This document shows positions 22,028-62,744 of a stretch of DNA of 64,000 nt, piece after piece. The DNA is taken from NCBI GenBank assembly GCA_030426085.1, contig JAUHYW010000003.1, forward strand, positions 119,343 through 183,342, given 5' to 3'. The stretch is from a bacterium. Its GTDB lineage: Bacteria > Myxococcota_A > Bradymonadia > UBA7976 > UBA1532. Position numbers and translations under genes: made by a program. Under the pieces are notes generated by a model. It was not told the DNA's origin. It was given only the letters and a program-made list of their open reading frames with translations, and made no database searches. Every line of letters begins with the position of its first letter. The first letter of the stretch is position 1.

Positions 22028-22031
22028 GCGT

Positions 22032-22957: not shown

Positions 22958-23356
<399 letters not shown>

Positions 23357-23983: not shown

Positions 23984-24344
23984 GGGGGCGATTGGTTTCG
24001 ACGGGGATGCTGAAACCCTGTCCGCGTGTCGCGCTTCTCGGTCAGCGCGTTAAAAAGGTCGAACGGCTATAACTGCCAACGATGATATGGAGATTGCTCT
24101 CGCCGCGTAAGTGAGCGTGAGTCGTCCTGCCAACCCTCGCCCATGGGGTTGAACGGGGCGTCACATCAGTGGGCTGGCCGAAGAGCGGTGCTCGTAACGC
24201 TCCGAGGCGAGATCAAATCGAGCTCCCCCGAACGGAAGCCCGCCCGTGGGCGACCGCCGGGGTAAAACAGAACGCGGGATACACACGTAGACGGCAGCGG
24301 CGGACGATTTCCGGACCCGGGTTCGACTCCCGGCGCCTCCACCA
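23984..24344 (+). ncRNA. ssrA: tmRNA (transfer-messenger RNA)
   Basis: 5' GGGGGCGATTGGTTTCGACGGGG and 3' GGACCCGGGTTCGACTCCCGGCGCCTCCACCA tRNA-like ends. Internal tag ORF gcc aac gat gat atg gag att gct ctc gcc gcg taa (24075-24110) gives ANDDMEIALAA. Confidence 0.9.
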
Positions 24345-31876: not shown

Positions 31877-31886
31877 GGGTCCTCCG

Positions 31887-33161: not shown

Positions 33162-33323
33162 CGGCGGGATCGGGCGGGGCCGATCGCGCGTCGCATCCCT
33201 CCGCCGGCATGATCCGGATCAGGTTCTGCGGATATCTCTCAGCCCCCGGCCATCGAGGGCACTCCGAGCGACGCGGGCGGACTGTGGACCACCGGGTCGG
33301 CCGGGGTCAAGGGGGGCCCGAGG

Positions 33324-39791: not shown

Positions 39792-40493
39792 ATGAGCGCC
39801 CCCGACGACGAGGTCCTGTTCGGCGAGCTGGTCGACGCGATGCTGCTGCCCGACGGGGCCCTGACCCCCACCGAGCAGGCGCTGGCCGAGGCCGAGGCCG
39901 CCCGGGCGGCGCGCATCGCCGAGGCGCTCACCGAGGCCCGGGCCGAAGCCGAGCGGCGGGCCGAGGCCGAGGCCGCCGCCGCCCGCGAGGCCGAGAAGCG
40001 GGCCGACGAGGCCCACGCCCGCCGCCGCAGCCGGGTGGCCGGCGCCCGGGGGGACGACCCCCGCGACGGGGAGGCCGACGCCGAACCCCGCCGGGGCCGC
40101 AGCGGCAGCCGCCGCCGTCGCAGCGGGCGCCGGAGCGGCCGCAGCAGCGGGCAGAGCGGGCAGAGCGGGCAGCAGGGGCGCCGCCGCAGCGGCGGGCAGG
40201 GCGAGCGGAGCGGTCAGGGCGCCGAGGGCAGCCAGAGCGGCGAGCAGGGCGGCAGCCGGCGCCGTCGACGCCGGCGGGGCGGCGCGCGCAAGAGCGGGGG
40301 GCAGCCGGGCGGCGGGCAGGCTCAGAAGGCCGGCGGCCGGCAGCGCGGCGGGCAGGGCCAGCAAAGCGGCGGGCCGGGCCAGCAAGGCGGCGGGCCGGGC
40401 CAGAAGGGCGGCGGACGGCGCCGTCGGCGGGGGTCACGGCAGGGTGGCCAGGGCGGCGGCGCGCGTGCTAAGGACTCCGGCCCGAAGGACTGA
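39792..40493 (+). CDS. hypothetical Arg/Gly/Ser/Gln-rich intrinsically disordered basic protein
   Basis: Starts 4 nt after holB. 20 nt upstream of the metG RBS. Strong GC3 bias in frame. N-terminal ~70 aa helical and acidic, then RRRSGRRSGRSSGQSGQSGQQGRRR... with tandem DNA repeats (e.g. cagcaaRgcggcgggccgggc x2). Confidence 0.5.
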   Translation: MSAPDDEVLFGELVDAMLLPDGALTPTEQALAEAEAARAARIAEALTEARAEAERRAEAEAAAAREAEKRADEAHARRRSRVAGARGDDPRDGEADAEPRRGRSGSRRRRSGRRSGRSSGQSGQSGQQGRRRSGGQGERSGQGAEGSQSGEQGGSRRRRRRRGGARKSGGQPGGGQAQKAGGRQRGGQGQQSGGPGQQGGGPGQKGGGRRRRRGSRQGGQGGGARAKDSGPKD

Positions 40494-48394: not shown

Positions 48395-49291
48395 GTGGGC
48401 CTCGCCCTGCTCGCGCTTCCGATCCCGTTCTGGGCGGTGGAGCGCTGGCTGGGCGGCATGCTCGGCGGCGCGGCGGCGGGGCTGCTGACGGTCCCCATCT
48501 GCCTCGTGCTGGCGTGGCTCGCCACCCGCCACCCGGCGTGGGATCGGCTCTCGACGCTGCCCGATCGGCCGGGGGCCACCGCGGCGCTCGGGGTGATCGT
48601 GGCGGCCCAGATCGGGGTGCTCGCCCTCGCCGCGCCGTGGGGCGGCGACCGGTGGGACGCGCTGCTGCTCGGGGGCGTCCTGGCCATCGCGGGCGTCTGG
48701 ATCTGGCTGTGGGGCGCGCTGGGCTACGGCCGGGCCCGAGGCCTCGTCTTCCCGGTGGCCTTCGCCGGCTTCGCCCTGCCCTGGGAGCACTTCCTGCGGG
48801 GCGCGATCGACACCCCGCTGCAAGCCTGGACCGCCGACATCGCCCTGCGCGGGCTGCGCCTCGCCGGCTACCCGATGCGGTATTGGAACAGCTACACCAT
48901 CTACTCGCCGGACTACTTCATCATCGTCAACGAGACCTGCTCGGGCATGAACATGCTGGTGACCCTCGGCATGTACACCCTCATCTTCGAGTGGCTGGTG
49001 CAGCCCCGGATGCGCAACCGGCTGCTGGTCCTGGCGCTGGCCTTCCCCCTGGCGATGCTGGCCAACGGGGCCCGGGTGGCGGTCATCTACCTGCTGGGCC
49101 ACTACGGCGGAGTGCCGGCGGCGGAGGGCTTCTGGCACACCGGCAGCGCCTACGTGATCTTCGTGCCGGTGTTCTGGTTCATCTTCGTCGTCGACCGGGC
49201 GCTGACCCGCCGCGACCGCAGGGCGAGGGCCGCCGCCAGCAGCAGCAGCGCGCCGCAGAGCCCCATCCACCAGTCGCCCCAGCGCACGTAG
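48395..49291 (+). CDS. exosortase family protein (EpsH/Xrt-like)
   Basis: Eight predicted TM helices. Conserved active-site region VNETCSGMNMLVTLGMY (Cys). LANGARVAVIYLLGH (Arg). First canonical in-frame start is GTG 48395. C-terminal tail overlaps the convergent lnt by about 140 nt. Confidence 0.8.
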   Translation: MGLALLALPIPFWAVERWLGGMLGGAAAGLLTVPICLVLAWLATRHPAWDRLSTLPDRPGATAALGVIVAAQIGVLALAAPWGGDRWDALLLGGVLAIAGVWIWLWGALGYGRARGLVFPVAFAGFALPWEHFLRGAIDTPLQAWTADIALRGLRLAGYPMRYWNSYTIYSPDYFIIVNETCSGMNMLVTLGMYTLIFEWLVQPRMRNRLLVLALAFPLAMLANGARVAVIYLLGHYGGVPAAEGFWHTGSAYVIFVPVFWFIFVVDRALTRRDRRARAAASSSSAPQSPIHQSPQRT

Positions 49292-50670
49292 AGCGTCGGG
49301 TCGCTGCGCAGCCGGGCCTCGCCCCGCAGCACGCCCGGTTCGAAGAGCCCCAGGGCGCCGTGCGCCCGACCGCGGGGGTCGATGAGCGTCGTGATGCCCG
49401 CCTGCCCCACCCGCAGCAGCCAGCGGCCGGTCTCCACCGCCCGGATCGCCGCCCGGCGGGTCATGTGATCGGTGATCGGAGAGCGCCCGAAGCCGGCGTC
49501 GTTGCTCATCACGACCAGCAGCTCGGCGCCGCGGGCCGCCAGCGCCCGGGCCCCGATGGGATAGACCGACTCCAGGCAGATGAGGGCCCCGATCCGGCCG
49601 GCGGGGGTCGCGATGGGGCGCCACGCGGGCCCCGGGGTGAAGTGGGCCTCGACCCCCGGCACCAGCCGCACCTTGGCCTGACGCCCGATCTCGTCGCCGC
49701 CGGGCGCGATGGCCACCGCGAGGTTGTAGCCCCGCCCCTCGGCGTCGCGGGCGACGAGCCCCGCGATCAGCGTGCTGGTATCGTCGGCCCGGGGGAAGAG
49801 CCGGGCCCGCAGCGCCGCCGTCTCGAGCACCGGCGCCCGGACCGCCGTCTCGGGCCACACCACCAGATCGGGCCGGGCCGCGAGCGCCTGCCGGGTGAGC
49901 GCCTCGTAGGTGGCGACGACGTCCCGCATCGCCGCCGGATCGGCCTGCGCCGCCCGGTACTGGGCGTTGGCCAGCCCGCCCTGCACCCCGGCCACGGTGA
50001 TCGTGCGCTCGCCCAGCGGCGGCGGCGCGACGACCCCGGCGACGCCGACCAGCCCGATGAACCCCGCCGCGCCCAGCGCCGCCGGCCGGTGCGAGCGGCC
50101 GACGAAGGCGAGGTGCCACACGACGCTGCCGCAGAGCGCCAGGAGCGTGCTGACCCCCAGCCCGCCGGTGTGCGGGGCCAGGGCCAGCCACGGCCGCAGC
50201 CACCCGACGTCGGCGATCCCGCCCACGTAGCTCGCCGGCATCGACAGCGGCCCGATCGTCCGGATCCACTCGGTCAGGGCCCAGACCAGCGCCGGCAGCG
50301 CCACGTCGATGGCCTTGCCCGCCGGGCCGGCGACGCGGCCCCACAAGAGGCGCATCAGCAGGCCGTAGATGACCATCTGGCTGCCGGTGTATAGGCTGAA
50401 CGCCACCAGGATCCAGGCGCCGTAGTCGAGGATGCCGTAGATGTGGGCCCCGCCGAGCACGCCCACGAGGCCCCCGAGCAGCGCCGCCTGCGTCGCCGAG
50501 CGGGCGCCCCACAGCGCGCACAGCAGCGGCACGTTGGCCACCAGCGCCAGCGGGCCGAAGTAGATGAACGCCGCGCCGTTGAGCAGGCCGGAGAGCGCCG
50601 CCAGCGCCCAGCGGGCCTCGGCGCAGAGGGCCGGCGCCCAGCGGCCGGCGTGGGTGGGGGCGACGATCAT
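49150..50670 (-). CDS. lnt: apolipoprotein N-acyltransferase
   Basis: N-terminal polytopic domain plus CN-hydrolase domain with E/K/C triad (VVWPETA ... K ... LICLESVYP). C-terminal TM helix. Confidence 0.85.
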   Translation of the reverse strand: MIVAPTHAGRWAPALCAEARWALAALSGLLNGAAFIYFGPLALVANVPLLCALWGARSATQAALLGGLVGVLGGAHIYGILDYGAWILVAFSLYTGSQMVIYGLLMRLLWGRVAGPAGKAIDVALPALVWALTEWIRTIGPLSMPASYVGGIADVGWLRPWLALAPHTGGLGVSTLLALCGSVVWHLAFVGRSHRPAALGAAGFIGLVGVAGVVAPPPLGERTITVAGVQGGLANAQYRAAQADPAAMRDVVATYEALTRQALAARPDLVVWPETAVRAPVLETAALRARLFPRADDTSTLIAGLVARDAEGRGYNLAVAIAPGGDEIGRQAKVRLVPGVEAHFTPGPAWRPIATPAGRIGALICLESVYPIGARALAARGAELLVVMSNDAGFGRSPITDHMTRRAAIRAVETGRWLLRVGQAGITTLIDPRGRAHGALGLFEPGVLRGEARLRSDPTLYVRWGDWWMGLCGALLLLAAALALRSRRVSARSTTKMNQNTGTKIT

Positions 50671-50674
50671 GGGG

Positions 50675-51184
50675 TCACCACGGGGGCTCCCGGGCGCCGA
50701 TCAGGGCCAGATCGACCGCCGCCGGGGGCAGCGCGCCCTCGGGGATGCGCACCACGCCCACGCCGGGGACCAGCGCCACCGGATCCACGCCGAAGAGCCC
50801 GATCAGGAGCTGAGGTCCGTCGGCGGTGAGCCGCAGCCGGGGCGGGGCGCCGGTCCAGCGGTCGGCGGTGTGCGGCCGGGTCTCGAGGCCCAGGCCGTCG
50901 AGCAGCGCGGTCCAGCCGGCGGCGTCGGCGGGCGCCGGGCCGCGCGGCGGCGGGTGATCGGGCGCGTAGCGGGCGTGGATCTCGGCGGGCAGGCTCAGCG
51001 CGGGGCGGGGGTCGACCACCGCCCCCAGGGGCGCGGCGTAGGGGCTGTGATAGCTGCGGTACAGGCCCTCGACGGTGTAGTCGTCGGTCAGCTCGCTGTG
51101 GGCCCGCACCGCCACGGCGCCGACCCAGAGCAGCATCAGCGGCCACAGGATCCGGGCCGTCCGCCGGCCCGTGGCCCGGCTCAC
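50675..51184 (-). CDS. hypothetical small signal-anchored protein (169 aa)
   Basis: GTG start overlapping the kinase stop (GTGA). Signal-anchor [19 protein letters not shown]. Ends 4 nt before lnt. High GC3. The upstream track ORF part is antisense junk. Confidence 0.5.
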
Positions 51185-54100
51185 GGGTCGCGGGCCAGCC
51201 GGAAGCCCACCGAGACCGACACCGCGTTGGGCGCCATCGCGTGGCGCGAAGCGGCCCGGGCGTGCAGGTCGAGGTGGTTCCAGCTCCCGCCCCGGCAGAT
51301 GCGGTCGGCGTTCTCCCCCTCGGCCCCCGCCGGGCTGACCGTCCAATCGCTCACGCTGCCGGCCAGATCCATCACCCCGTACGGGCTGCGGTCGGTGGGG
51401 AAGCTGCCGCACGGCTCGAGGTGGGCCGCCCCGGGGCGGGCGTGAGCCGACTTGCAGTAGGTCGGCTCCCAGGTGTTGCCCCACGGGAAGTGGCGCAGGT
51501 CAGCGCCCCGGGCGGCGACCTCCCACTCGATCTCGGTCGGCAGGCGGTAGCGGGCGTGGTCCAGCGCGCTGCGCCAGCGGCAGTAGGCCAGCGCGTCGTC
51601 GAAGGCCACCCCGAACACCGGCCAGTTGGGGTCCCACGGGATGCCGTTGGGGTCCCGCTCGGGGATTTCGAACCGGCCGCCCGCCTCGCGGAAGAGCATG
51701 CCCCCGCCGGTGAACAGCCGCGGCGCCCGCCGCCGGGCCTGCTCGATGTCATCGGCGGCAAGCCCGTTGAGGAAGTCGAGGTACTGCCGCCCGCTGACCG
51801 GCAGCCGGGAGAGGCAGAAGTCGGCCACCTCGACGGTCTGCCGGGGCAGGCCCCACGAGGCGAGGCGGTCGCCGCCGATGGTCTTCGGGCCGCCCGGGAT
51901 GTAGACGAAGCCGGCCCCCAGCGCGGCCTCGGTGCGCATGCGCACCGTCACCTCGGCCTCGCCCAGCCGCTCGATGCGCACCGGCACCTGGGTGTCGCGC
52001 AGGCCGGGGGCCCGCAGCACGAGCAGGTAGTTGCCCATCGGCAGCGGGTCGACGACCACCGGGGTCCGCCCCAGGTCGCGCCCGTTCTGGGGGGTGAGGA
52101 TCTTGTCGATCTCGACGTAGTCGAACAGCACCGCCCGGGCGCCGGGGGGGTCGGTCTCGACCTGAAGCCGCCCGTCGCCCCGCAGCAGCTCGGCGTAGTG
52201 CCCGGTGTCGACCCCCCGCAGCACGGTCTCGTACTGCACCATCGCCGGCCGGTCGTCCTCGTGCTCGGCTTGCAGGAACCCGCCCCAGTAGAGCTGGCAC
52301 AGCCCCTCGCGGGCCTCGGCGTCGTCCGGGTCGCAGACCAGCGCCTGGCGGAAGCTCTGGCCGGCGCGGGTGAAGCTCTCCACCCGCTCCCGGCGGGCGT
52401 GGTCGAGGTGCTGCTGCGCGTCCCACAGCGGCCGCCGCTTCTCGGCCCCGGCCCACGGGGCCAGCCGCAGCCGCTGGTTCTCGACCTCGGCCATGAGCCG
52501 CTCGACCGCCCGGGTGTGGGCCCGGTAGTCGTCGACGTGGCCCTTGGCGGTGGTCGTGTGGCGCCGGGCCTCCTTGCGCTGCCGCTCCAGCTCCATCGCG
52601 CCCTCGAGGAAGCGCTGCAAGTCGGCGTGCACGTCGAGCACCGAGCGGTAGCGCTGCTCGATGTCCTTGGCCAGGCAGCGCATCGCGATGGCCTCGAGCT
52701 CGGCCGGGATCTCGCGGGCCGGGGCCCGCTTGCGGGGGGGGATGACCCGCTCGCGCAGCATCTTGCGGATGATCGCCCGCGCGTCGCGCCCGGTGTAGGG
52801 CGGCCGCAGGGTCAGGATCTCGTAGAGGATGGCCCCGAGGCTGTAGATGTCGGAGCGCTCGTCGACCTCGTCGAGGTTGCCCAGCGCCAGCTCGGGCGGC
52901 ATGTAGCCCGGGGTGCCGATGACCTCGCCGTGGCGGGTCGCCCACCGGCTCATGCCCGCCCGGTGGCTCTGGATGCCGTCCTCCACCGCCCGCCGGGGCA
53001 GGATCTTGGCCAGCCCCCAGTCCATGACCAGGATCTCGCCGAAGTCGCCGAACATGATGTTGCTCGGCTTGAGGTCGCGGTGCACGACGTGGCGGCTGTG
53101 GGCGTAGGCGATGCCCATGCACACCTGCTGGAAGCTCGTCAGCAGCCGGTTGCGGCCGAACTCGGCCTCGATGTCGGCGTCGCCCCGGCGCAGCCCCTTG
53201 AGCACGTCCCGCAGGGTGACGCCCTGCACCAGCTTCATCGTGAAGTAGAGCTGGCCGTCCTTGTGCCGCCCGAGGTCGTAGACCGGCACGATGTTGGGGT
53301 GCTGGAGCTGGCCGGTGATCTGGGCCTCTTCGGTGAAGCGGAGCTGCAGCCCGAGCTGCTCGTCCTTGCCCTTGATGAGCAGCTTCATGGCCACGGCCCG
53401 GTCGATGTTCTGGTCCCGGGCCTCGATCACCCGGCCCATGCCGCCCTTGGCGATCAGGCCGCCGAGCTCGTAGCGGGTCGCGCTCTGGTGCAGGGTCGGC
53501 AGCACGTCGCTGCGCCGGTCCCGCTCCCGCTCGGCGGTCTTCGGGCGGCGGTCGACGACGTCGAACGGCACCCCCCCGGGGCTCGGCGCGCGCTCGGGCT
53601 CGCCGGACATCTCGTCGACCGGTTCGAAGTCGGCCGAGGAGCCGAAGCCCGACCCCAGGTCGGAGACCGAGCGCTCCTGCTTGGAGACGTGGTCCGAGAC
53701 GAGCAGGTCGCCCCCGTCGGCCGGCCTCTCGATCTGGGGCAGCGCGCCCGACTGGGGCCGGATCCGACCCACCGGCAGCGCGTCGGGCAGCTCGTCGAAG
53801 CCGTCGTCGGTGCCGAACGCCCGGTAGGCGGCGAAGGGGTCGTCCGCCGAGTCGAGCCCGTCGGTCGCCGCGCTCTCGGCGGCGGCCCCCTCGAACAGGA
53901 AGTGCCCGTCGCCCACGTCGAGCAGCGCCTCGAGGTCGTCGTCGAGCGCCGGACTGCCCGCCGCCGAGGGCCCCTGGGAGACGTGGAACGGCAGATCGGC
54001 CGCCGGCGGGGGCCCGGTGTCGGCCATCGGCGCGCCGTCGTCCCACGGCAGGTCGGGCTCGGTGACCCGGCGGGCGGCGGGCATGAGGGTCGGGCTGTCG

Positions 54101-54915
54101 CTGTCCGGCTCGGGGCGCCCGGTCGGCTCGTCCGAGTCGTCGGGGCCCACGCTGTCGAAGACGTCGGCGTCCGTCGGCCCATCGAGCGGCTCGAGCGGCG
54201 CGTCGGAGTCGGCGAGCGAGACCACCCGGAACGGGTTCGCGCCCCGGGAGTCGAGGCCGTCGGCGGGCAGCGAGTCGTACTCGAAGGTGTTCATCGAGTC
54301 GAACGGTGATCCGAGCGAGTCGAGGCCGTCGTCCGACAGATCGGCCACCGGGGTGGTCTCGGCGCTGTCGAGGCGGTCGGGCGGGCGCGGCTCGGCGGGG
54401 GGCAGGATGTCCCGGCCGAAGGGCGCGGTGGCGGGTGGGGTGCCGGTCGGGGGGTCGCGATCGACCGGACGGCCGAAGGGTGTGGCCACCGCGGCCACCG
54501 GGCGCCGATCGGGGGGCGCGATGCCGGGGGTTGTCGGGCGGGCGGTCGGGCGGGCCACGCCGGGCGTCGTGGGCCGGGCCGGCGGGGCCTGGACCGCCGG
54601 CTCGGAGCGGCGGCCGGGCGGCGGCGAGACCGGCGTCGAGCCGGAGCTGTCGGGCCGGGGCCGGGGCGGCGCCGGGCGCAGGGCGACCCGGCCCGGCGGC
54701 GCCGACGAACCGCGCCGGTGACGGGGCGGCTCGTCGTCCTGGGCGATGAGCGAGGCGAGCTGGTCGTGGGAGGTCAACCCCATCTCGATGATGAGGTCGA
54801 CGAACGGGCGCCCGTTGGCCTCGGCGAGCTTGCGGAACTGATTGAGCAGGGGCTCGGGCACACCCAGCTTGTCACGCACCAGCGCGACGAGTCGGGTGTC
54901 GTCCAGGCCGTGCAT
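51181..54915 (-). CDS. Ser/Thr protein kinase with N-terminal T2SS-E N-terminal-like (MshEN-type) domain and C-terminal FGE-sulfatase (SUMF1-like) domain
   Basis: N-terminus [51 protein letters not shown]. About 380-aa Pro/Asp-rich disordered region. Kinase motifs ([42 protein letters not shown]). C-terminal FGE-sulfatase motifs ([14 protein letters not shown]...PWGN..., RGGSW). Confidence 0.85.
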
Positions 54916-54942
54916 CCCCGCCCCCCTCCGTGCGTGCGCCCG

Positions 54943-56187
54943 TCAGCCGGGCCAGGTCTCGATCAGGCGGTGCACCTCGGCGTCGGCCAGGACCCGGTTG
55001 CGGGCCTTGGCCTCGCCGAGGATGTAGGCCGACAGGCCCTCCCGGCGCTCGACGCCGTGCACCTCCAGCCAGAAGTCGACGTTCGACAGGCCGCTCATGT
55101 GGCCCACCTCGATGCGCTGCTGCTTGCCGAACTCACCGGCCGGCACCCCGCTGTAGATGCGGTCGGCCAGCCAGTGATCGCCCTTGCGCTGGGCCTTGAT
55201 CACCGCCGCGGCGTGCACCCCGGTCGCGGTGCGGAAGGCGTCGTCGCCCATCACCGGATAGTTCAGCGGGATGGGCCAGCGGCAGGCCTCGCTGACCGTC
55301 TGACACCACTCGACCAGCCGGGTCAGGTCGTTGTCGATCTCGCCCATCAGCTTGAAGTTGATCAGGATCTGATCGAGCGCGGCGTTGCCCACCCGCTCGC
55401 CGATGCCCAGCGCGGTGCCGTGGATGCGATCGGCCCCGAACTCGGCGGCGAAGATCGAGTTGCACACCGCCAGCCCGCGGTCGTTGTGCCCGTGCCAGTC
55501 GATGCCGATCTCCTCGCCGGTGCCCTCGATGAGGTTGCGGGTCCACCAGATGAGGTTGCGCACCCCGTCGGGCGTCGCGTGGCCCACGGTGTCGCACAGG
55601 CACAGCCGGGTGGCGCCCTTGTCGATGGCGTTGAGGAAGAGCGGCTGCAGCGTCTCGGGGCGGCTGCGCACGGTGTCCTCGGTCACGAAGGTGACCGGGA
55701 GGTTCTCCTTCACCGCGAACTCGATGGCGCTGCCGCTCAGCTCGAGCAGCCGGTCGAGGTCCCAGTTCTCGGCGTACTGCCGGATGGGGCTCGTGCCCAG
55801 GAACGCCATCACCTCGATCTCGAGGCCGGTCTTCTGGCTGATCTCGGCGATGGGCCGGATGTCGTTGATGTGGGTCCGCGCGGCGCAGCTCGGGCGGATC
55901 TGCATCCCGTTGGCGACGTGGTGCTCGGCCAGCGCGGTGACATCGGCCACCGCCCGGGGCCCGGCGCCGGGCAGCCCGAGGTCGATGGCGTCGATGCCCA
56001 GCGCCTCTTCGAGCTCGAGGATCTTGAGCTTGGCCGCCAGCGGAGGGTCGGTGATCGAGGGCCCCTGGATGCCGTCGCGCAGGGTCTCGTCGTAGAACAG
56101 CACCGTCGGGGCCAGCGCCGCCCGGCGGCCCTTGAGGTTCCAGTTGTAGATCAGCTCGGCTTCCGCCGGTCGGCGCTTCTGCTTCAT
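54943..56187 (-). CDS. HMGL-like family protein (2-isopropylmalate/homocitrate synthase-like aldolase domain, no LeuA regulatory domain)
   Basis: DETLRDGIQ and WHGHNDRGLAVCNS metal-binding motifs of the DRE-TIM metallolyase fold. 414 aa. ATG overlaps the thiolase stop (TGATG). Confidence 0.8.
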   Translation of the reverse strand: MKQKRRPAEAELIYNWNLKGRRAALAPTVLFYDETLRDGIQGPSITDPPLAAKLKILELEEALGIDAIDLGLPGAGPRAVADVTALAEHHVANGMQIRPSCAARTHINDIRPIAEISQKTGLEIEVMAFLGTSPIRQYAENWDLDRLLELSGSAIEFAVKENLPVTFVTEDTVRSRPETLQPLFLNAIDKGATRLCLCDTVGHATPDGVRNLIWWTRNLIEGTGEEIGIDWHGHNDRGLAVCNSIFAAEFGADRIHGTALGIGERVGNAALDQILINFKLMGEIDNDLTRLVEWCQTVSEACRWPIPLNYPVMGDDAFRTATGVHAAAVIKAQRKGDHWLADRIYSGVPAGEFGKQQRIEVGHMSGLSNVDFWLEVHGVERREGLSAYILGEAKARNRVLADAEVHRLIETWPG

Positions 56188-57383
56188 CACACAGCCTCCA
56201 CGATGACCGCGATGCCCTGCCCCCCGCCGATGCAGGCGGTGCCCAGCGCGAAGCGGCCGCCCCGCTGCTTCAGGGCGTAGAGCAGGTGGGTCACGATGCG
56301 GGCGCCGGTGGCCCCGAGGGGGTGCCCCAGGGCGATGGCGCCGCCGTCGACGTTGGTCCGATCGCGGGGCAGGCCGAGGGCCTTCTCCACCGCCAGATAC
56401 TGCGGGGCGAAGGCCTCGTTGACCTCGATGACGTCCATCTGGTCGACGGTCATGCCGGCCCGCTCGAGCGCGATGCGGCTCGCCGGCACCGGTCCGATGC
56501 CCATGATGCTCGGGTCGCAGCCGCTCACCCCCCACTGCACCAGCCGGCCGAGCGGCGCGAGGCCCTTCTCGGCGGCGTAGGCCGCGGTGCTCATCACCAG
56601 CGCGGCGGCGCCGTCGCAGATGCCGCTGGCGTTGCCCGCGGTCACCGTGCCGTCCTGCTTGAACACCGGCCGCAGCTTCGCCAGCCCGGCGGCGTCGCTC
56701 TGGGGGCGGGGGTGCTCGTCGACCTCGAAGGTGACGCTGCCCTTGCGCGACTTCAGCTCGATGGGCGCGATCTCGTCGGCGAAGCGCCCCGCCGCCTGCG
56801 CCTCGGCCCAGGTGCGCTGGCTGCGCAGGGCGTAGGCGTCGCACGCCTCGCGGTCGATGGCGTACTGCTCGGCGAGGTTCTCGGCGGTGATCGCCATCGG
56901 CATGCCGGTGTAGCTGTCGGTCAGGCAGGTCCACAGGCTGTCTTCCAGCTCGGGGCTCTTGCCGAACCGCAGGCCCTTGCGGCCCCCCCGCAGGACGTGC
57001 GGGGCCTGGCTCATCGACTCGGTGCCCCCGACCAGCACCGCCCGGGCGTCGCCGACCAGGATCTCACGGGCCCCGCCGGTGATCGCCTCGAAGCCCGACC
57101 CGCACAGCCGGTTGACGGTGACCGCCGGCACCCGCTGGGGCACCCCGCTCTTCAGGCCGACGTGGCGGGCGAGATAGATCGCGTCCTTGCTGGTCTGGAG
57201 CACGTTGCCGAAGACGACGTGGTCGATGTCCTCGGCGGGCACGCCGCTCTGGGCCAGGGCGGCCCGGGCGGCGTGCACCCCCAGGTCGGTGGCCGAGAGG
57301 CCGTCGAGGGCGCCGTTGAAGGTGCCGAACGCGGTGCGCCGGGCGCCCAGGAACACGATCTCGGTGGACAGGGGCCTGCTCAT
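56187..57383 (-). CDS. acetyl-CoA C-acetyltransferase (thiolase II)
   Basis: Active-site Cys region VNRLCGSGFEAI. C-terminal GHPLGATGARI...CIGGGQGIA. Start chosen at the ATG giving MSRPLSTEIVFLGARRTA. The track start 57422 is an alternative. Confidence 0.9.
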   Translation of the reverse strand: MSRPLSTEIVFLGARRTAFGTFNGALDGLSATDLGVHAARAALAQSGVPAEDIDHVVFGNVLQTSKDAIYLARHVGLKSGVPQRVPAVTVNRLCGSGFEAITGGAREILVGDARAVLVGGTESMSQAPHVLRGGRKGLRFGKSPELEDSLWTCLTDSYTGMPMAITAENLAEQYAIDREACDAYALRSQRTWAEAQAAGRFADEIAPIELKSRKGSVTFEVDEHPRPQSDAAGLAKLRPVFKQDGTVTAGNASGICDGAAALVMSTAAYAAEKGLAPLGRLVQWGVSGCDPSIMGIGPVPASRIALERAGMTVDQMDVIEVNEAFAPQYLAVEKALGLPRDRTNVDGGAIALGHPLGATGARIVTHLLYALKQRGGRFALGTACIGGGQGIAVIVEAV

Positions 57384-57454
57384 CTCGGGGTCTCTCTCCT
57401 CGCTGGGACTCGATTGTAACAAATCGCCGCCGTTCGGATGGCGTCAGCGGCACT

Positions 57455-58528
57455 TCACGCGGCGGGCGGCGGCGCGTGCACGAACCGCACGAGCGCATCA
57501 CCCACCGCCCGGGTGCCCAGTTCACCACCCAGGTCGCGGGTCACCCGGTGCTCGCGCAGGGCCTGGACCACCGCCGCCTCGACCGCCATCGCCGCCTCGC
57601 CGTGCCCCAGGAACTCCAGCATCTGGGCCCCGGTGAGCACCATCGCCAGCGGGTTGGCGATGTCCTTGCCGGCCAGCGGCGGCGCGCTGCCGTGCACCGG
57701 CTCGAACAGGCTGACCCGCCCGGGGTGGATGTTGCCGCTCGGGGCCAGCCCCAGCCCGCCGACGAGCTGGGCCGACAGGTCGCTGAGCACGTCGCCGAGC
57801 AGGTTGCCGGTGACGATGACGTCGAAGTCCTCCGGGGCCCGCACCAGCTCCATCGCCAGCACGTCGGCGTAGAGGTGGCGGGCGGCGATGTCGGGGTACT
57901 CTTCGGCCACCTCGACGAAGACGTCCTGCCACAGCCCGTGGGCGTCGCGCAGCACGTTGGCCTTGTCGGCCATGCACACCCGCTTGCGCTCGTTCTCCAC
58001 CGCCCACTCGAACGCCGCCCGCACGATGCGCTCGACGCCCTTGCGGGTCTGCACCATCTCGTTGATCGCGATCTCGTCCGGCGTGCCCTGCTTGAAGCGG
58101 CCGCCGATGCCCACATACAGGCCCTCGGTGTTCTCCCGCAGGATCACGAAGTCGAGGTCGTCGGGGGTCTTGTTCTTGAGCGGGGTCAGCGCCGGGTGCA
58201 GCAGCCGGGCCGGGCGCAGGTTGACGTAGAGGTCGAGGCGGAAGCGCAGCCCGAGCAGGATGTCCTTGGCGTGGGCCATGTCGGGCACCCGGGGGTCGCC
58301 GAGCGCGCCGAGGTAGATCGCGTCGTAGTTGTCGCGGAAGTCCTCGAAGGCCGACTGGGGCAGGGTCACCCCCTCGGCGAGGTACTTCTCGGCGCCGAAG
58401 TCGAACCAGGTGAACTCCAGCGGCAGGTCGTGCAGCTCGGCGACGGCCTCGAGCACCTGCACCCCGACGGCGGCCACCTCGGGGCCGATGCCGTCTCCGG
58501 GGATGACCGCGATCTTCTGGACGCTCAT
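57455..58528 (-). CDS. isocitrate/3-isopropylmalate dehydrogenase family protein (tartrate/IPM dehydrogenase-like)
   Basis: IAVIPGDGIGPEV N-terminus. LRENTEGLY. GNLLGDVLSDL. Overlaps the upstream kinase gene stop by 4 nt (ATGA). Confidence 0.85.
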   Translation of the reverse strand: MSVQKIAVIPGDGIGPEVAAVGVQVLEAVAELHDLPLEFTWFDFGAEKYLAEGVTLPQSAFEDFRDNYDAIYLGALGDPRVPDMAHAKDILLGLRFRLDLYVNLRPARLLHPALTPLKNKTPDDLDFVILRENTEGLYVGIGGRFKQGTPDEIAINEMVQTRKGVERIVRAAFEWAVENERKRVCMADKANVLRDAHGLWQDVFVEVAEEYPDIAARHLYADVLAMELVRAPEDFDVIVTGNLLGDVLSDLSAQLVGGLGLAPSGNIHPGRVSLFEPVHGSAPPLAGKDIANPLAMVLTGAQMLEFLGHGEAAMAVEAAVVQALREHRVTRDLGGELGTRAVGDALVRFVHAPPPAA

Positions 58529-60276
58529 CGTGCCTCCTCTACGGGGGGTCCCGTCTCGTCCGGCCCGCGCTTGAGCGCGCCGGCGTACTTCAACATCAGC
58601 CGCAGCGCGGCCCGCTCGAAGGCCCGAGCGGACGCCCGCAGGCCGTCGGCGGCCACCGCCGCCTGCTGCTCGTAGCGCACCCCGTCCTCCTGCTCTTCGA
58701 GCTCGAGCTCGGCGAGGTCGCGCTGCAAGTCGGCCCGCTGACCCCGAGCCTCGGCCAGCCGCTCGGCCGCCTCCCGCTCGTCCTCCCGGGCGTCGGCCAG
58801 GGATTCGAGCAGGCCCTCGCGCTCTTCGAGCACCGCGTCGACCCGCCGCCGGTGGTGCTCGAGCATCGGCAGCGAGGTGTCGGCCACCGTGCGCCCGGCG
58901 ACCATGCGCAGCGCCGCGAGCACCCGGCCGTACTTGTCGTCGGCCCGGGCCACCGCCGAGACCGCCCGGTCGAGCGCGCCCGCCGCCTCGCTGGCCCGGC
59001 CCTCGGCCAGCATCAGCCCCTGCCGCAGCCGGCGCAGCTTGCGCTGGAGCGCCTCCCGCCCCGCGATGCGGATGCGGGCCGCGTCGTCGGCCTCCTCCCG
59101 CTTGCGGTCGGCCTCGCCCTGGGCCAGATCGAGCGCCTTGCGGGCCCGCTTGAGCAGCCCCCCGGCCCGCAGGACCTCGGGCGGCGGCGAGGGCTGCCAG
59201 ATGTTGGCCACCAGGTGCTCGAGGTTCTCGGCGAACAGCCGCCAGTCGCCGGTGTGGCCCGGGCCGGGCACCTCGGGCAGCGGCGCCTGACGGGCGGTGG
59301 CCCCCTGGGCGAAGCTGCCCGCCAGCTCGCGGATGGAGCGGTCGAGCGCGGCGATGACCGCCTCGGCGCTGCCCGGCCGGTCGTCGGGGCGCTTCTCGAG
59401 GCAGTTGTGGATCAGGGCCACCAGGGTGCGGGGCAGGCCGGGCACCAGCCCGTCGATGCGGGGCGGGACCTCTTGCACATGGGCCGCCACCACCCGGGTC
59501 GGGTCGTCGTGGGGGAACGGCGGGCGCCCCGCGATCAGATGGTAGAGCACCCCGCCGACGGCGTAGAGGTCGGTGCGGGCGTCGGGCGGCTCGCCGACCG
59601 CCTGCTCGGGGGCCAGATACAGCGGGGTGCCCATGATGAACAGCCCGGTCGGCTCATGGGCCCGCTCGGGGTCGTCGGCCGGCAGCGCCAGGATGCCCAG
59701 GTCGATGAGCTTGACGTGGTCGACGAAGCGCCCGTCGGCCGTCAGGAAGATGTTCTCCGGCTTGACGTCGCGGTGCACCGCGCCCCGCCGGTGCAGCACC
59801 GCGAGCGCCTCGCACACCTGGCGCATGATGTGGATCGCGCGCACCGGCGGCAGCCGCAGGCGCTCCTCGAGCTCGTCGAAGAGGTCGCGGCCCCGGAGCA
59901 GCTCCATGGCGAGCCACGCCCGCCCGTCGGAGAAGTGGCCCCCGTCGAGGATGCTGACCAGGTGCGGGTGGCGCAGGCCGCGACCCACGTTCCACTCGGT
60001 CTCCATGCGGGCGACCACCGCCGGGGCCTCGGGGATGTCGTCCCGGCTGACCTTCACCGCCAGCCGCCGGTTCGAGGCGTTGTGCCGCACCTCGAACACC
60101 TCGGCGGTGCTGCCGTCGGCCAGCCGCCGGAGCAGCGTGTAGCCGAAGCGCAACAGCTCGATGGGGATGTCGGCCCGGGGCTGGCCCGGCTGGGGCAGGT
60201 CGCTCAACGTTCCTCGGGGCGGTCGGTTCGCGCCGCGCGCGCGGGCGATCAACGGGTGATCGTTAGCACATCGCAC
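58525..60276 (-). CDS. Ser/Thr protein kinase with long C-terminal coiled-coil
   Basis: Kinase motifs (AVKV, HRDVKPENIFL, DLGIL, GTPLYLAPE) then about 250 aa of Arg/Glu-rich coiled coil. Track start is GTG at 60276. An ATG three codons downstream (60269-60271) is an alternative; the exact start is unresolved. Confidence 0.8.
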   Translation of the reverse strand: MRCANDHPLIARARGANRPPRGTLSDLPQPGQPRADIPIELLRFGYTLLRRLADGSTAEVFEVRHNASNRRLAVKVSRDDIPEAPAVVARMETEWNVGRGLRHPHLVSILDGGHFSDGRAWLAMELLRGRDLFDELEERLRLPPVRAIHIMRQVCEALAVLHRRGAVHRDVKPENIFLTADGRFVDHVKLIDLGILALPADDPERAHEPTGLFIMGTPLYLAPEQAVGEPPDARTDLYAVGGVLYHLIAGRPPFPHDDPTRVVAAHVQEVPPRIDGLVPGLPRTLVALIHNCLEKRPDDRPGSAEAVIAALDRSIRELAGSFAQGATARQAPLPEVPGPGHTGDWRLFAENLEHLVANIWQPSPPPEVLRAGGLLKRARKALDLAQGEADRKREEADDAARIRIAGREALQRKLRRLRQGLMLAEGRASEAAGALDRAVSAVARADDKYGRVLAALRMVAGRTVADTSLPMLEHHRRRVDAVLEEREGLLESLADAREDEREAAERLAEARGQRADLQRDLAELELEEQEDGVRYEQQAAVAADGLRASARAFERAALRLMLKYAGALKRGPDETGPPVEEAR

Positions 60277-60356
60277 CGTCGACGGCGATCTTCGCCGCCG
60301 ACCGGCGGGTCTCGGGTATCCTGCCCGCCGACCGCACCCGATACGAGGAGAATCCG

Positions 60357-62744
60357 ATGCCCCGGATCCGATGGCGGCCGCTGGTGTGGATCGCCGCAGC
60401 CCTGGTCTGCGCCGCCTGTGACGACGACGAGCCGGCCGCCCCGACCGACATGTCGCTGCCCGACGCCGCGCCCGACGCCGCGCTCGACGCCACCCCCGAC
60501 CCGGTCGACATGCTGCCCCCCGACGCGGCGCCCACGGGCACCCTCAGCGCCGCCGAGGCCCGGGTCGAGTTCGGCCTCGTCGCGGTCGGCGGCTCGGGCA
60601 CCGCCGATCTGCTGCTGCGCAACGCCGGCCCCGGCCCGGTGACCGTCACCGCGTTCGAGGGCCTCGATCCGCCGTTCTCCACCAACCGCTCGCTGCCGCT
60701 GACCGTGCCCCCCGAGGCCGAGCGCACGGTCGTGCTGACCTTCGCCCCCGAGGCGGTCGGCCCGGCCGAGGCGACGATCACCGTGGCCGCCGACGGCGCG
60801 GGCCCCCCGGTCGAGGTGACCCTGGCCGGCGAGGCGGCGCTGCCCGAGGGCGAGCTGGTCGGCGACGGCCTCGACTTCGGCACCGTCGCCCCCGGCGAGC
60901 CGGCGGCCGACTTCATCGAGATCCGCAACACCAGCCCCGCGCTGCCGCTCGACGTCTACGACGTGGTCGGGGTCGAGCCCCCGTTCGCGATCCCCCAGGG
61001 GCAGGTGCCGGTGACCGCCGACGCCGGCCAGAGCGCCCGGGTGCTGGTGCAGTTCGAGCCCGAGGGCGACGGCGAGTGGTCGATCCCGGTGACCGTGCGC
61101 ACCGCCGCGGGGGACTTCGAAGCCACCCTCAGCGGGCGGGCGCTGACCCCCGGCGAGCTGGTGCTGACCGGGGTCGAGCCCGGCTGGGCCCCGGTGGACG
61201 AGCCGCGGCGGATCGTGGTGCACGGGGGGCCCTTCGCCGCGGCCCCCGAGGGCATCGAGATCGGGGGCGTGGCCCTCGACGAGCTGGAGCGGCTGGACGA
61301 ATGGCGGCTGGCGGGCACCCTGCCGGCCGCGGGCGAGGGTCAGGATCCGACGCTGGGCCCGGTGGACGTGCGGGTCGACCTCGGCGGCGGGTTCGGGGTG
61401 CTCTCGGGGGCCCTCGTCCGGACCCCGCCGGTCGCCGACGGCATGATGCTCGACCTCGCCGACGAGGCGCCCACCGCCGATCCGGCGGGCAACCCGTGGA
61501 CGGTGCTGGGCGATACGCTGCCCGCCGCGTCGACGCTGACGGTGATGCCCGGCGCGGTGCTGCTCTTCGGGGGCGGGGCGCTGACGGTCGAGGGCGCGGT
61601 TCAGGCCGGCGGGCCCGAGGGGCCGGCGGTCTTCTCGGCGGCCGCGTGCGGCGGCTGGCGCGGGCTGGACATCGTCGAGGGCGAGGCGGCGGTGAACCTG
61701 AACCGGGTCCAGATCGAGTGCGCTGCGCCCGACGGGCCCACGGTGCGCATCGCCGGCCGCTCGCCGGGGCTGTCCGAGGTCGCGATCCGGGCCGCGGGCG
61801 GCGGCTGCGTCGACGTGCAGAGCGGCGCGCTGACCCTGGTGACCGCCGAGCTGACCGGCTGCGGCGGGCCGGGCATCGCCCTGGGGCCCGAGGCGGCGGT
61901 GGGCCGGTTGCAGGCCAGCCGCATCCGGGGCGCCGACTGGCCGGTGACCGGCTTCGCCCACACCTTCGGCCGGCTGCCGCTCGGCGCGGGGCACGACTGG
62001 GTGGGCAATACCCACGACGCCATCGGCCTGGGGCCGGGCTTCCTGGGCGACGTGACCCTGGCCAGCCAGCCGCTCGGGGTGCGCTATCGCATCCGGGACG
62101 TGCTGCGGGTCGCCCGGGGCGCCAGCCTGCGCATCAACACCGGCGCGCCGCTGGTCATCGACAACCCGATCGAGGTCGAGGGGTCGCTGACCCTGCCGGG
62201 CCGGACCCGCTTCCAGGCCGAGGCCGCCGGCGGGATCACGGTCCTGGCGGGGGGCACGCTGACCGCCCAGGGCATGGCCGGTGATCCGACGGTGATCGAG
62301 GCCCGCGCGCCGGAGGGCGACCCCGCGCCCGGCGGCTGGGGCGGGGTCGTGATCGAGGCCCCGTCGACCCTCGCCGGGGGCTACCTGACCCTGCGCGACG
62401 GCGGCGCCGACGGCCCCGCGCTGCGCCTCGGCGGGCTGGCGATGCCCTTCGCCGGGCTGACGGTGACCGACAGCGCCGACGTGGGCCTGCGGATCGAGGC
62501 CGACGCCGAGCTGGCCGGGGCGCTGTTCGCCGACAACCCGGGGGGCGTCGTCATCGCCGCCGGCGCCGGCTCGATCACCGGCGAGACGGCCGATCCGGCG
62601 CCGGCGGTGCGCATCGCCGAGGGGGTCGACTGCGGCGGGTGGGACACCGCCGAGCTGCTCGACGGGGCTGGCCTGCCGGCGGCGGTCGAGTGCGGCGGCG
62701 GAGAGGGAGAAGGCGAGGGCGAGGGCGAGCCGCCGATGCCCTGA
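60357..62744 (+). CDS. large secreted/lipoprotein with repeated Ig-like beta-sandwich modules and a probable beta-helix region
   Basis: AGGAG RBS. Signal peptide with Cys-containing cleavage region (LVCAAC|DDDE). Repeated ~100-aa modules (LLLRNAGPGPVTVTAFEG...VVLTFAP ; FIEIRNTSPALPLDVYDV...VLVQFEP). C-terminal GEGEGEGEGE tail. Confidence 0.65.
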   Translation: MPRIRWRPLVWIAAALVCAACDDDEPAAPTDMSLPDAAPDAALDATPDPVDMLPPDAAPTGTLSAAEARVEFGLVAVGGSGTADLLLRNAGPGPVTVTAFEGLDPPFSTNRSLPLTVPPEAERTVVLTFAPEAVGPAEATITVAADGAGPPVEVTLAGEAALPEGELVGDGLDFGTVAPGEPAADFIEIRNTSPALPLDVYDVVGVEPPFAIPQGQVPVTADAGQSARVLVQFEPEGDGEWSIPVTVRTAAGDFEATLSGRALTPGELVLTGVEPGWAPVDEPRRIVVHGGPFAAAPEGIEIGGVALDELERLDEWRLAGTLPAAGEGQDPTLGPVDVRVDLGGGFGVLSGALVRTPPVADGMMLDLADEAPTADPAGNPWTVLGDTLPAASTLTVMPGAVLLFGGGALTVEGAVQAGGPEGPAVFSAAACGGWRGLDIVEGEAAVNLNRVQIECAAPDGPTVRIAGRSPGLSEVAIRAAGGGCVDVQSGALTLVTAELTGCGGPGIALGPEAAVGRLQASRIRGADWPVTGFAHTFGRLPLGAGHDWVGNTHDAIGLGPGFLGDVTLASQPLGVRYRIRDVLRVARGASLRINTGAPLVIDNPIEVEGSLTLPGRTRFQAEAAGGITVLAGGTLTAQGMAGDPTVIEARAPEGDPAPGGWGGVVIEAPSTLAGGYLTLRDGGADGPALRLGGLAMPFAGLTVTDSADVGLRIEADAELAGALFADNPGGVVIAAGAGSITGETADPAPAVRIAEGVDCGGWDTAELLDGAGLPAAVECGGGEGEGEGEGEPPMP

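Follow-up and report, generated by a model that had tools for sequence, protein, structure and literature searches.

A Ser/Thr kinase gene coupled to a dehydrogenase gene beside a thiolase-LeuA-like gene pair in a Bradymonadia genome: a candidate module for 2-oxoacid chain extension

Introduction

A run of four minus-strand genes in a bacterium of the Bradymonadia lineage (assembly GCA_030426085.1, contig JAUHYW010000003.1) encodes a Ser/Thr kinase (STK1), a β-decarboxylating dehydrogenase (Iso_dh), a thiolase, and a short DRE-TIM metalloenzyme resembling LeuA and homocitrate synthase (LeuAF). The run was analyzed within a stretch of 64,000 nucleotides (nt) (positions 119,343 to 183,342 of the contig), referred to below as the window. 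Judged by gene order, the arrangement is more than chance, because it recurs in other genomes. The explanation that we tentatively favor is a lineage-specific joining of two translationally coupled pairs, STK1 with Iso_dh and thiolase with LeuAF, into one conserved, uncharacterized metabolic module that would perform leucine-type chain extension under kinase control.

Among known systems, the locus may be compared with the LeuA/LeuCD/LeuB-type chain elongation modules of the leucine, citramalate/isoleucine, homocitrate/2-oxoadipate, and coenzyme B pathways. Like these, it combines a DRE-TIM synthase containing the R-D, E, HxH, and H residues with a dehydrogenase of the Iso_dh family, and in some genomes the cluster includes isomerases of the isopropylmalate isomerase (IPMI) family. 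LeuAF differs in forming a separate deep family, with a LIYxWN motif of its own and no regulatory domain. The constant partner is a thiolase rather than leuCD, and the other neighbors are β-oxidation enzymes. 3-Hydroxy-3-methylglutaryl-CoA (HMG-CoA) lyase, which occurs with thiolase in leucine catabolism and ketogenesis, shares with the locus the HMGL-like Pfam family and thiolase adjacency, but LeuAF does not match the lyase model, and its motifs and post-barrel subdomain are of the LeuA type. In the archaeal thiolase/HMG-CoA synthase complex, the exergonic condensing enzyme would pull the unfavorable equilibrium of the thiolase. A thiolase is likewise tightly coupled here, through its gene, to a putative acetyl-CoA condensing enzyme, although the condensing enzyme has a thiolase fold in the archaeal complex and a DRE-TIM fold in LeuAF.

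Two systems bear on the kinase. The isocitrate dehydrogenase of Escherichia coli, which belongs to the superfamily of Iso_dh, is controlled by AceK, a bifunctional kinase/phosphatase that is not a Hanks kinase. In both cases a kinase is encoded beside metabolic genes, and a β-decarboxylating dehydrogenase acts or, for Iso_dh, would act at an acetyl-CoA branch point, a likeness that is an analogy only: the Iso_dh residue aligned with Ser113, the target of AceK, is an Asp. In Myxococcus xanthus, the Hanks kinase gene pkn4 is co-transcribed with pfk, and the kinase phosphorylates the encoded phosphofructokinase (PMC2887360), which is essentially the only operon-encoded kinase-substrate example from myxobacteria so far. 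Both loci hold a myxobacterial Hanks kinase gene in tight tandem with the gene of a central-metabolism enzyme, conserved in related genomes. Here the enzyme is different, the kinase gene comes first instead of second, the kinase carries a coiled-coil hairpin of ~200 residues, and the kinase-substrate relation is a putative one.

Organization of the four genes

The four open reading frames (ORFs) run from 60276 to 54943 on the minus strand and display the third-position G+C bias typical of true genes (G+C content of the window, ~73%). Pfam placed their products in the superfamilies named by the first-pass annotation of this DNA, and the ATGA overlap, the gap of about 70 nt (71 nt exactly), and the TGATG overlap that it reported were all found as described:

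58525 to 60207, minus strand: STK1, soluble Hanks-type Ser/Thr kinase with a C-terminal coiled-coil hairpin (Pkinase)
58525 to 58545, minus strand: STK1/Iso_dh junction, ATGA stop-start overlap with a Shine-Dalgarno (SD) sequence, GAGGAGG, within the last kinase codons
57455 to 58528, minus strand: Iso_dh, β-decarboxylating dehydrogenase of the actinobacterial-LeuB/tartrate dehydrogenase branch, 357 aa (Iso_dh, E value 2e-102)
57384 to 57454, minus strand: Iso_dh-thiolase gap, 71 nt, with TGnTACAAT, resembling an extended -10 element (hexamer, 57413 to 57418), and the SD sequence GAGGAGAG
56187 to 57383, minus strand: thiolase, 398 aa, acetyl-CoA C-acyltransferase, BktB-like (Thiolase_N and Thiolase_C)
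56185 to 56210, minus strand: thiolase/LeuAF junction, TGATG one-base overlap with the SD sequence GTGGAGG in the final thiolase codons
54943 to 56187, minus strand: LeuAF, short LeuA/homocitrate synthase-like DRE-TIM enzyme without a regulatory domain, 414 aa (HMGL-like)

The SD sequence of Iso_dh lies five bases 5' of its ATG, inside the kinase reading frame. TATAGT and TATACT occur at the position matching the -10-like box in the equivalent gaps of loci L092 and L088, respectively, which makes three lineages in all; the gaps align poorly, and a scan of 54700 to 60700 for consensus promoters and terminators retrieved none. The box is thus weak evidence for a possible internal promoter. No RNA element was detected by Rfam in the 48- to 64-kb part of the window. 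Overlaps and short gaps are not in themselves evidence for one pathway, because the run extends into a second kinase gene and lnt and because the window has four kinases; only comparison across genomes can show linkage.

Linkage of the three enzymes across genomes

We compared 80 species loci around LeuAF (GTDB), 80 metagenome loci around Iso_dh, and 16 loci retrieved by exact-protein look-up. In 34 of the 82 loci with enough flank, LeuAF was immediately preceded by a co-directional thiolase gene, the orthologues being 55 to 79% identical. These loci are spread across most of the deep branches of a neighbor-joining tree of LeuAF, and by this distribution the thiolase-LeuAF pair is old. In seven of the eight lineages checked, the window counted, the final thiolase codons contain an SD sequence and the stop codon either overlaps the LeuAF start or is ≤2 nt away from it: GTGGAGG in the window, L092, L088, L001, L003, and L007, and GCTGGAGG with the same overlap in L090. 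The exception, L063, had neither feature. Thiolase has been lost from a large Kofleriaceae-like clade, in which a DUF4388 protein and a 117-aa membrane protein are encoded 5' of LeuAF.

The order Iso_dh-thiolase-LeuAF was conserved in at least seven lineages, comprising the clade of the window (L096, L092/L093, L088, and L090), two further GTDB lineages (L057 and L063), and metagenome contigs L099, L102, L106, and L121, in which LeuAF was 53 to 58% identical. In L116, L156, L119, and L125, Iso_dh was adjacent to a LeuAF-type thiolase or lay between two thiolases followed by a 3-hydroxyacyl-CoA dehydrogenase, the order being Iso_dh-thiolase-Hbd in L116 and L156. IPMI-like genes occupied three kinds of positions: Iso_dh was followed by a fused LeuD/LeuC-like protein in L164, an IPMI/homoaconitase-family fusion directly preceded thiolase-LeuAF in L065 and L017, and the large and small IPMI parts were encoded 5' of Iso_dh in L121. 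In L164, LeuAF closes an E1a-E1b-E2 2-oxoacid dehydrogenase operon. A MaoC hydratase was encoded in five loci, and the fused isobutyryl-CoA mutase IcmF was encoded in L063. In L076 (1313 to 5155; "bacterium SJ803," 37% G+C), a LeuAF member that was 55% identical clustered with Hbd, crotonase, and a lipoprotein; the LeuAF family and its C4-acyl-CoA context therefore range far beyond the high-G+C Myxococcota. A search for ilv and leu genes next to LeuAF, by Pfam on the gene directly 5' of it in 72 loci and by tblastn for named partners, found none. Likewise, tblastn and Pfam on ~35 window ORFs revealed no gene of the aconitase family in the window, extending to all 64 kb the absence of an isomerase that the first-pass annotation had noted in the cluster itself. 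From this gene order we infer that the three enzymes are functionally tied and that they keep company with 2-oxoacid and C4-acyl-CoA metabolism.

In the Kofleriaceae-like loci (L005 and L014 to L058; 11 to 24 loci), the proteins encoded before LeuAF are a ~930-aa DUF4388/PatA_N-TPR protein, a ~470-aa protein, and the 117-aa membrane protein. The window encodes a related DUF4388-DnaJ-TPR protein at 44245 to 46734, away from the run.

The genes flanking the run in the window are as follows:

51181 to 54915, minus strand: second kinase, 1244 aa, with a Pro-rich N terminus and Pkinase, PEGA, and FGE-sulfatase domains, 27 nt past LeuAF
50675 to 51184, minus strand: ~169-aa protein with an N-terminal hydrophobic segment, its GTG overlapping the stop of the second kinase (GTGA)
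49150 to 50670, minus strand: lnt, apolipoprotein N-acyltransferase (CN_hydrolase; TIGR00546, 148.5 bits versus a cut-off of 132.9)
48395 to 49291, convergent with the end of the run: exosortase of the EpsH family, below all subtype cut-offs
60357 to 62744, plus strand: ASH/HYDIN-like Ig-domain protein, 795 aa, divergent from STK1 and a syntenic partner of Iso_dh

The second kinase gene also follows LeuAF in L003, L008, L088, L092, L096, and the contig from the Joint Genome Institute (JGI) that encodes P0154. The ~169-aa protein, encoded 4 nt before lnt, the last gene of the co-directional run, had no Pfam or NCBIfam match; its orthologues in L088 and L092 comprise 172 to 174 aa. The block past LeuAF (48395 to 51184), consisting of a ~170-aa membrane protein, lnt, and a convergent exosortase, is kept in L003, L008, L088, L090, and L092, and in several relatives it is followed by a response regulator and a PatA_N/Rce1-like protein.

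The kinase and its pairing with the dehydrogenase

STK1 matched Pkinase (PF00069; E value, 7e-40) and possesses all the elements that define Hanks-type kinases, namely, the VAxK Lys, the αC Glu, HRDxKxxN, D(F/L)G, and APE. The corresponding residues (K75, E94, HRD170, N175, DLG192, and APE) are invariant in five orthologues; the glycine-rich loop, DGSTAEV, is degenerate. In the 5' direction the ORF stays open as far as a GTG at 60276, which is probably not the start. Translation likely begins at TTG 60207, which is preceded by GAGGAA: the resulting 560-aa protein is 100% identical to the NCBI-called P0255 (560 aa), and the orthologues, of 547 to 556 aa, start ~25 codons inside GTG 60276. A single-sequence AlphaFold2 model (pLDDT, 83.8) folded the C-terminal 250 aa into two helices of ~96 and ~102 residues with a short turn between them. 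These last 250 residues had no Pfam match, and Foldseek returned generic coiled coils only (SH3BP5, F-BAR, and SMC arms), so that "coiled-coil" kinase, as the first-pass annotation had it, appears from the model to be a fair description. A metagenome scan with the coiled-coil domain produced 600 pattern matches, none of which was confirmed.

The orthologous family of STK1 is sharply bounded, with 66 clusters at 43 to 100% identity and 88 to 100% coverage, including the tail, beyond which only the kinase domain was matched. A kinase of 547 to 555 aa was encoded directly 5' of Iso_dh in L092/L093, L089, L096, and L090, where Iso_dh was 74 to 91% identical. On the P0154 contig (71%), the kinase and Iso_dh genes lie on one strand and the thiolase, LeuAF, and second-kinase genes on the other, ~4.4 kb away. 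Ten pairs of STK1 and Iso_dh clusters were tied by equal size of their longest contig, a proxy for co-location; two of these were the L090 and P0154 contigs. Identity in these pairs fell to 46% for STK1 and 64% for Iso_dh, and three of the contigs were only 4.2, 5.5, and 7.1 kb long. With the proxy-based cases counted, STK1 shares a locus or contig with Iso_dh in ~14 lineages. GAGGAGG followed by TGATG or TGAnTTG at the kinase/Iso_dh junction was also found in L092, L096, and L089 and is thus kept in four lineages.

In L090, L093, and L094, a gene for an ASH-domain protein of ~780 aa lies a short distance 5' of Iso_dh in the opposite orientation, and proteins of 782 to 783 aa for which no Pfam match is on record occupy this position in L092 and on the P0154 contig. 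In L094, Iso_dh lies beside the ASH-domain gene and the kinase is absent. This is the arrangement of a Bradymonadia-labeled metagenome-assembled genome (MAG), in which thiolase-LeuAF is on another contig, and the more distant Iso_dh-thiolase-LeuAF triads also lack the kinase. Because the ASH-Iso_dh neighborhood and the distant triads both occur without it, the kinase gene appears to have been inserted later, in the space that separates Iso_dh from the ASH-domain gene. By these comparisons, the kinase is clade specific and its pair with Iso_dh is younger than the thiolase-LeuAF pair but conserved.

The linkage that the first-pass annotation had proposed among the three enzymes and to the kinase was therefore recovered, since the pairs recur, but the single kinase-headed four-gene operon was not. 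The kinase is an addition, confined to one clade, to an older three-enzyme module; the two halves are on opposite strands of the P0154 contig; the 71-nt gap contains a -10-like box; and the same packing extends to the second kinase and lnt.

The LeuA-like enzyme

LeuAF (P0001) matched a single Pfam family, HMGL-like (E value, 2e-39), and scored below every curated cut-off for LeuA, CimA, and homocitrate synthase. The best model was NF002085 (176.2 bits versus 517), followed by TIGR02660 (168.5 versus 462.9), TIGR00973 (144.6 versus 598.7), and TIGR00977 (115.8 versus 450); over the LeuA, archaeal LEU1, NifV, fungal homocitrate synthase, and citramalate synthase models, scores were 116 to 176 bits for cut-offs of 414 to 729. 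The closest structure in the PDB was LeuA from Neisseria (NmLeuA; 3rmj, 113 bits). The LeuA-type catalytic set R38, D39, E171, H233, H235, and H326 aligns with 3rmj and is invariant in 12 family members, H233 and H235 being the HxH metal ligands and H326 the His of the (S/T)G(I/V)H motif. Pfam detected no LeuA_dimer regulatory domain in the protein, which ends at 414 aa. Its alignment to the LeuA profile (504 positions) runs only as far as position 378, a span that takes in the post-barrel subdomain but not the regulatory domain. The length, the LeuA-like HxH, and the lack of a regulatory domain given by the first-pass annotation are supported by these comparisons.

The family has signatures of its own: an N-terminal LIYxWN, DETLRDGIQ(G/S)PS as the counterpart of DTTLRDGEQ, and further invariant residues, which include Cys199 and four additional basic ones (R79, R137, R238, and R320). 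At 57 to 100% identity, members are spread over at least 600 GTDB species, almost all of which bear the label Myxococcota, Polyangia, Kofleriaceae, Nannocystaceae, Sandaracinaceae, or Bradymonadia. An exhaustive search (E value, ≤1e-30) retrieved 549 representative clusters, more than 100 of which were full length (~400 to 430 aa) at 33 to 55% identity. Literature searches for the gene combination or for "LeuA family protein" returned nothing relevant.

Substrate preference was considered by alignment with the homocitrate synthase of Thermus, in which His72, Arg133, and Ser135 bind the distal carboxylate of the substrate. The aligned residues of LeuAF are Ala, Thr, and Val, so that by this alignment an aliphatic 2-oxoacid would be favored over 2-oxoglutarate. 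The neighbor set (2-oxoacid dehydrogenase, hydratase, Hbd, and thiolase) would also fit a route from 2-oxoadipate to glutaryl-CoA, crotonyl-CoA, and acetoacetyl-CoA.

Several members of the family carry further domains, which may serve as Rosetta-stone hints to function. In P0454, P0457, and P0469, which are 46 to 51% identical to LeuAF of the window, the DRE-TIM domain is preceded by a fused GNAT domain of the FeeM/OlsB-like N-acyl-amino-acid-synthase type. At the C terminus, P0508 bears a 2Fe-2S domain, and P0390, P0398, and P0424 are extended by ~230 aa without a Pfam match. The FeeM-like GNAT fusions suggested a connection from LeuAF to the exosortase/lnt block, which was rejected, the exosortase-associated acyltransferase model scoring only 23.7 bits versus 112. 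The 811-aa thiolase-LeuAF "fusion" P0246 (L096, 2393 to 4828) proved to be an artifact of one Logan assembly, in which a single-base frameshift puts the final ~50 thiolase residues into the wrong frame; these residues match an alternative-frame ORF of the window (54943 to 56934). Through this frameshift, the public 90% clustering lumps thiolase and LeuA-like proteins into one cluster.

The dehydrogenase and the thiolase

The PDB entries nearest to Iso_dh were 3flk, the tartrate dehydrogenase (TDH) of Pseudomonas (278 bits), and 1w0d, LeuB of Mycobacterium tuberculosis (270 bits). Iso_dh missed the cut-offs for LeuB (NF002898, actinobacterial-type isopropylmalate dehydrogenase [IPMDH], 389.0 versus 393; TIGR00169, 283.6 versus 353.2) and those for the tartrate/D-malate dehydrogenase TtuC (TIGR02089, 352.9 versus 470.4; NF006048, 322.6 versus 501). 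Close relatives are named "isocitrate/isopropylmalate dehydrogenase family protein" by NCBI. The catalytic and carboxylate-binding residues R95, R105, R131, Y138, K189, D222, D246, and D250 were invariant in 14 sequences. The substrate loop, H-A-x-D/E-I-L-L-G, is common to a large family from Myxococcota, Acidobacteria, and soil metagenomes and is unlike that of LeuB or TDH; it reads H-A-K-D-I-L-L-G-L-R in Iso_dh, E-R-G-L-L-L-R-L-R in M. tuberculosis LeuB, and L-W-G-S-L-L-K-F-R in TDH. By its motifs and scores, the thiolase is a standard thiolase II: it passed TIGR01930 (447.7 bits versus a cut-off of 240.55), it was closest to BktB while remaining below the BktB and PhaA equivalog cut-offs, and its catalytic Cys (NRLCGSG), His (GHPLG), and Cys (CIGGG) are all present.

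Proposed pathway and alternative explanations

The core module would carry out leucine-type 2-oxoacid chain extension wired to C4/3-ketoacyl-CoA metabolism. In the proposed sequence, thiolase would interconvert 3-ketoacyl-CoA and acetyl-CoA, and LeuAF would join acetyl-CoA to a 2-oxoacid, giving a 2-substituted malate. An IPMI-type isomerase, presumably encoded elsewhere in the genome of the window and in the cluster in some others, would shift the hydroxyl. Iso_dh would then oxidatively decarboxylate the 3-substituted malate to a 2-oxoacid longer by one carbon, which a 2-oxoacid dehydrogenase complex would convert to an acyl-CoA in some organisms. In the clade of the window, the gene of a cytoplasmic kinase would have inserted directly 5' of Iso_dh, in translational coupling with it. 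Its product would most likely phosphorylate Iso_dh or pathway partners and so replace the missing allosteric domain of LeuA as the point of control. The two pathways suggested by the first-pass annotation fared differently: chain elongation gained from the IPMI/aconitase-family genes of L164, L065, L017, and L121 and the 2-oxoacid dehydrogenase operon of L164, whereas the HMG-CoA-type shunt lost ground for the reasons given below.

Several observations weigh against this pathway and its control by STK1. LeuAF lies far under every curated LeuA, CimA, or homocitrate synthase cut-off (176 versus 517 bits for the best model), and the residue equivalent to Glu87 of Thermus, which belongs to the loop for recognition of the isopropyl group, is absent from the aligned position of Iso_dh, an acidic residue being shifted by one or two positions. 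Aconitase-family matches were obtained in only 4 of ~170 loci, the window not among them. The recurrent partners (thiolase, Hbd, crotonase, and MaoC) belong to β-oxidation/butyrate metabolism and to no known leucine operon, and the role assigned to the thiolase is for that reason a guess. The thiolase gene may have a promoter of its own, given the -10-like box in front of it, and the tight packing runs on into the second kinase and lnt and hence is no proof of a common pathway. L003 and L008, in which LeuAF is 80 to 82% identical, have neither the kinase nor Iso_dh beside thiolase-LeuAF; the order there is thiolase-LeuAF-second kinase-lnt-exosortase. Conservation of the kinase is limited to one clade and is partly a matter of shared descent, the genome is kinase rich (four per 64 kb), and none of the nine clade-specific positions in the kinase-linked Iso_dh orthologues is a phospho-acceptor, no Ser or Thr being specific to them.

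The main rival draws on several of these points. According to it, LeuAF and Iso_dh are divergent LeuA and LeuB, the thiolase is a general acetoacetyl-CoA thiolase, the kinases are unrelated to all three, and the gene order of these housekeeping neighbors has been kept by descent. Iso_dh is only 4 bits short of the LeuB cut-off, which some members pass, being named LeuB (L164, 406.9 versus 393), IPMI-like genes occur at four loci, and the company of lnt, a second kinase, and four kinases in all, together with L003 and L008, is what this explanation expects. We nevertheless consider it unlikely. The thiolase-LeuAF pair extends from Bradymonadia-labeled MAGs to Polyangia and unknown metagenome lineages at 53 to 60% identity, far past passive synteny; ilv and leu genes are missing next to LeuAF (upstream gene, 72 loci) and aconitase-family genes are almost so; LeuAF has no feedback domain; and the pairing of the kinase with Iso_dh survives rearrangement. 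In addition, cultured Bradymonabacteria are reported to lack complete valine, leucine, and isoleucine pathways (PMC7460792). Plain leucine biosynthesis is disfavored because the Bradymonadia-labeled MAG, which is not a cultured strain, keeps both modules all the same.

A bolder version of the chain-extension proposal, which we hold to be distinctly doubtful, treats Iso_dh-thiolase-LeuAF as an unrecognized pathway and not a leucine operon. A feedback-insensitive synthase and a thiolase would stand between acetyl-CoA/C4-acyl-CoA and extended 2-oxoacids, and a kinase would set the flux by phosphorylating Iso_dh, reinventing control of the AceK type. Two candidate routes fit the neighbors. One would lead from 2-oxoisovalerate through 2-oxoisocaproate to isovaleryl-CoA, yielding iso-fatty-acid primers where branched-chain amino acids are not made de novo. 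The other, homocitrate-like, would lead from 2-oxoadipate through glutaryl-CoA to crotonyl-CoA and acetoacetyl-CoA. Isovaleryl-CoA is central to myxobacterial lipids and signals, and iso-fatty-acid supply is a known need of myxobacteria (PMC5389471); its provision by the module is speculation. As far as literature searches show, the constant thiolase partner and the coupling of a kinase to an IPMDH-like enzyme have not been described.

If linkage reflects function, a role would follow for a ~410-aa LeuA-like family (at least 600 species and 549 representative clusters) and for an IPMDH-like family, which annotation pipelines label "LeuA family protein" or misname as leucine biosynthesis genes. 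Thiolase/β-oxidation chemistry would become linked to 2-oxoacid chain extension, with relevance to the handling of branched-chain amino acids and iso-fatty-acid primers in predatory Myxococcota and Bradymonadia. Among the Ser/Thr kinases of myxobacteria, of which hundreds are orphans, STK1 would stand out by having in Iso_dh a concrete candidate substrate.

Control by the kinase has an alternative of its own, namely, that STK1 inserted where the promoters of the ASH-domain gene and Iso_dh diverge and was inherited along with these genes without regulatory meaning. Caution about chance proximity of kinases to other genes has been expressed (PMC2887360) and applies to a window with four of them; L094 displays the ASH-Iso_dh neighborhood without the kinase, and Iso_dh offers no clade-specific phospho-acceptor. 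We find this improbable in view of a pairing that holds at 46 to 57% kinase identity, on short contigs, and through the inversion that parts it from thiolase-LeuAF, and in view of an SD sequence in the kinase 3' end and a stop-start overlap kept in four lineages.

Returning to the chemistry, an HMG-CoA or ketone-body shunt would have the DRE-TIM enzyme act as a lyase or synthase on a substrate of the 3-hydroxy-3-alkylglutaryl-CoA or acetoacetyl-CoA type, directly with the thiolase, as thiolase and HMG-CoA synthase do in the mevalonate pathway. Thiolase is by far the commonest partner of LeuAF and is translationally coupled to it, the Hbd, crotonase, and MaoC neighbors handle C4 acyl-CoAs, and R79, R137, R238, and R320 could conceivably bind a second CoA. 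The shunt is nonetheless highly improbable. The HMG-CoA lyase model NF004283 gave no match to LeuAF of the window at an E value of ≤0.001 and only faint partial matches to distant fusion members of the family (30 to 38 bits versus a cut-off of 246); LeuAF resembles LeuA in its catalytic Glu and His and in its post-barrel subdomain; and the IPMDH-like and IPMI-like partners use malate-type 2-hydroxy-dicarboxylates, which are not products of such a shunt.

Weakest of all is an isomerase-free route in which LeuAF makes a secondary alcohol for direct oxidation by Iso_dh (D-malate from glyoxylate and acetyl-CoA or a 3-alkylmalate from glyoxylate and a longer acyl-CoA supplied by the thiolase), for although most triads have no isomerase nearby, Iso_dh is as near to tartrate/D-malate dehydrogenase as to LeuB, and the thiolase gene sits between those of Iso_dh and LeuAF, four clusters contain IPMI-like genes and, for DRE-TIM synthases, no acyl-CoA nucleophile other than acetyl-CoA is known.

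Other features of the window

The four Hanks kinases are encoded at 1804 to 4572 (plus strand; with an SBP_bac_5 solute-binding domain), 11946 to 15374 (minus strand; with a long N-terminal region), 51181 to 54915 (minus strand; with PEGA and FGE-sulfatase domains), and 58525 to 60207 (minus strand; with the coiled-coil hairpin). The kinase at 11946 to 15374 was considered as a second coupled pair, with a tRNA synthetase gene, and discarded, its true start leaving a gap of 88 nt. A protein with FHA and DUF4388 domains is encoded nearby (15853 to 16902).

A cluster of housekeeping RNA genes (22031 to 24344, plus strand) lies just past rpoD (20264 to 22000) and comprises tRNA-Met (22031 to 22107), RNase P RNA (22970 to 23348), smpB (within 23307 to 23864), and transfer-messenger RNA (23984 to 24344; tag, ANDDMEIALAA). 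A thiamine pyrophosphate riboswitch (33179 to 33276, minus strand; 63.8 bits versus a gathering score of 54.3) precedes ORFs 31887 to 33218 and 30569 to 32014, which had no Pfam match and may encode an uncharacterized thiamine-related transporter or enzyme. ARAGORN called a 97-nt tRNA-Pro(CGG) at 40036 to 40132 (minus strand) that the Rfam tRNA model did not report at its gathering score; either the call may be false or the gene atypical.

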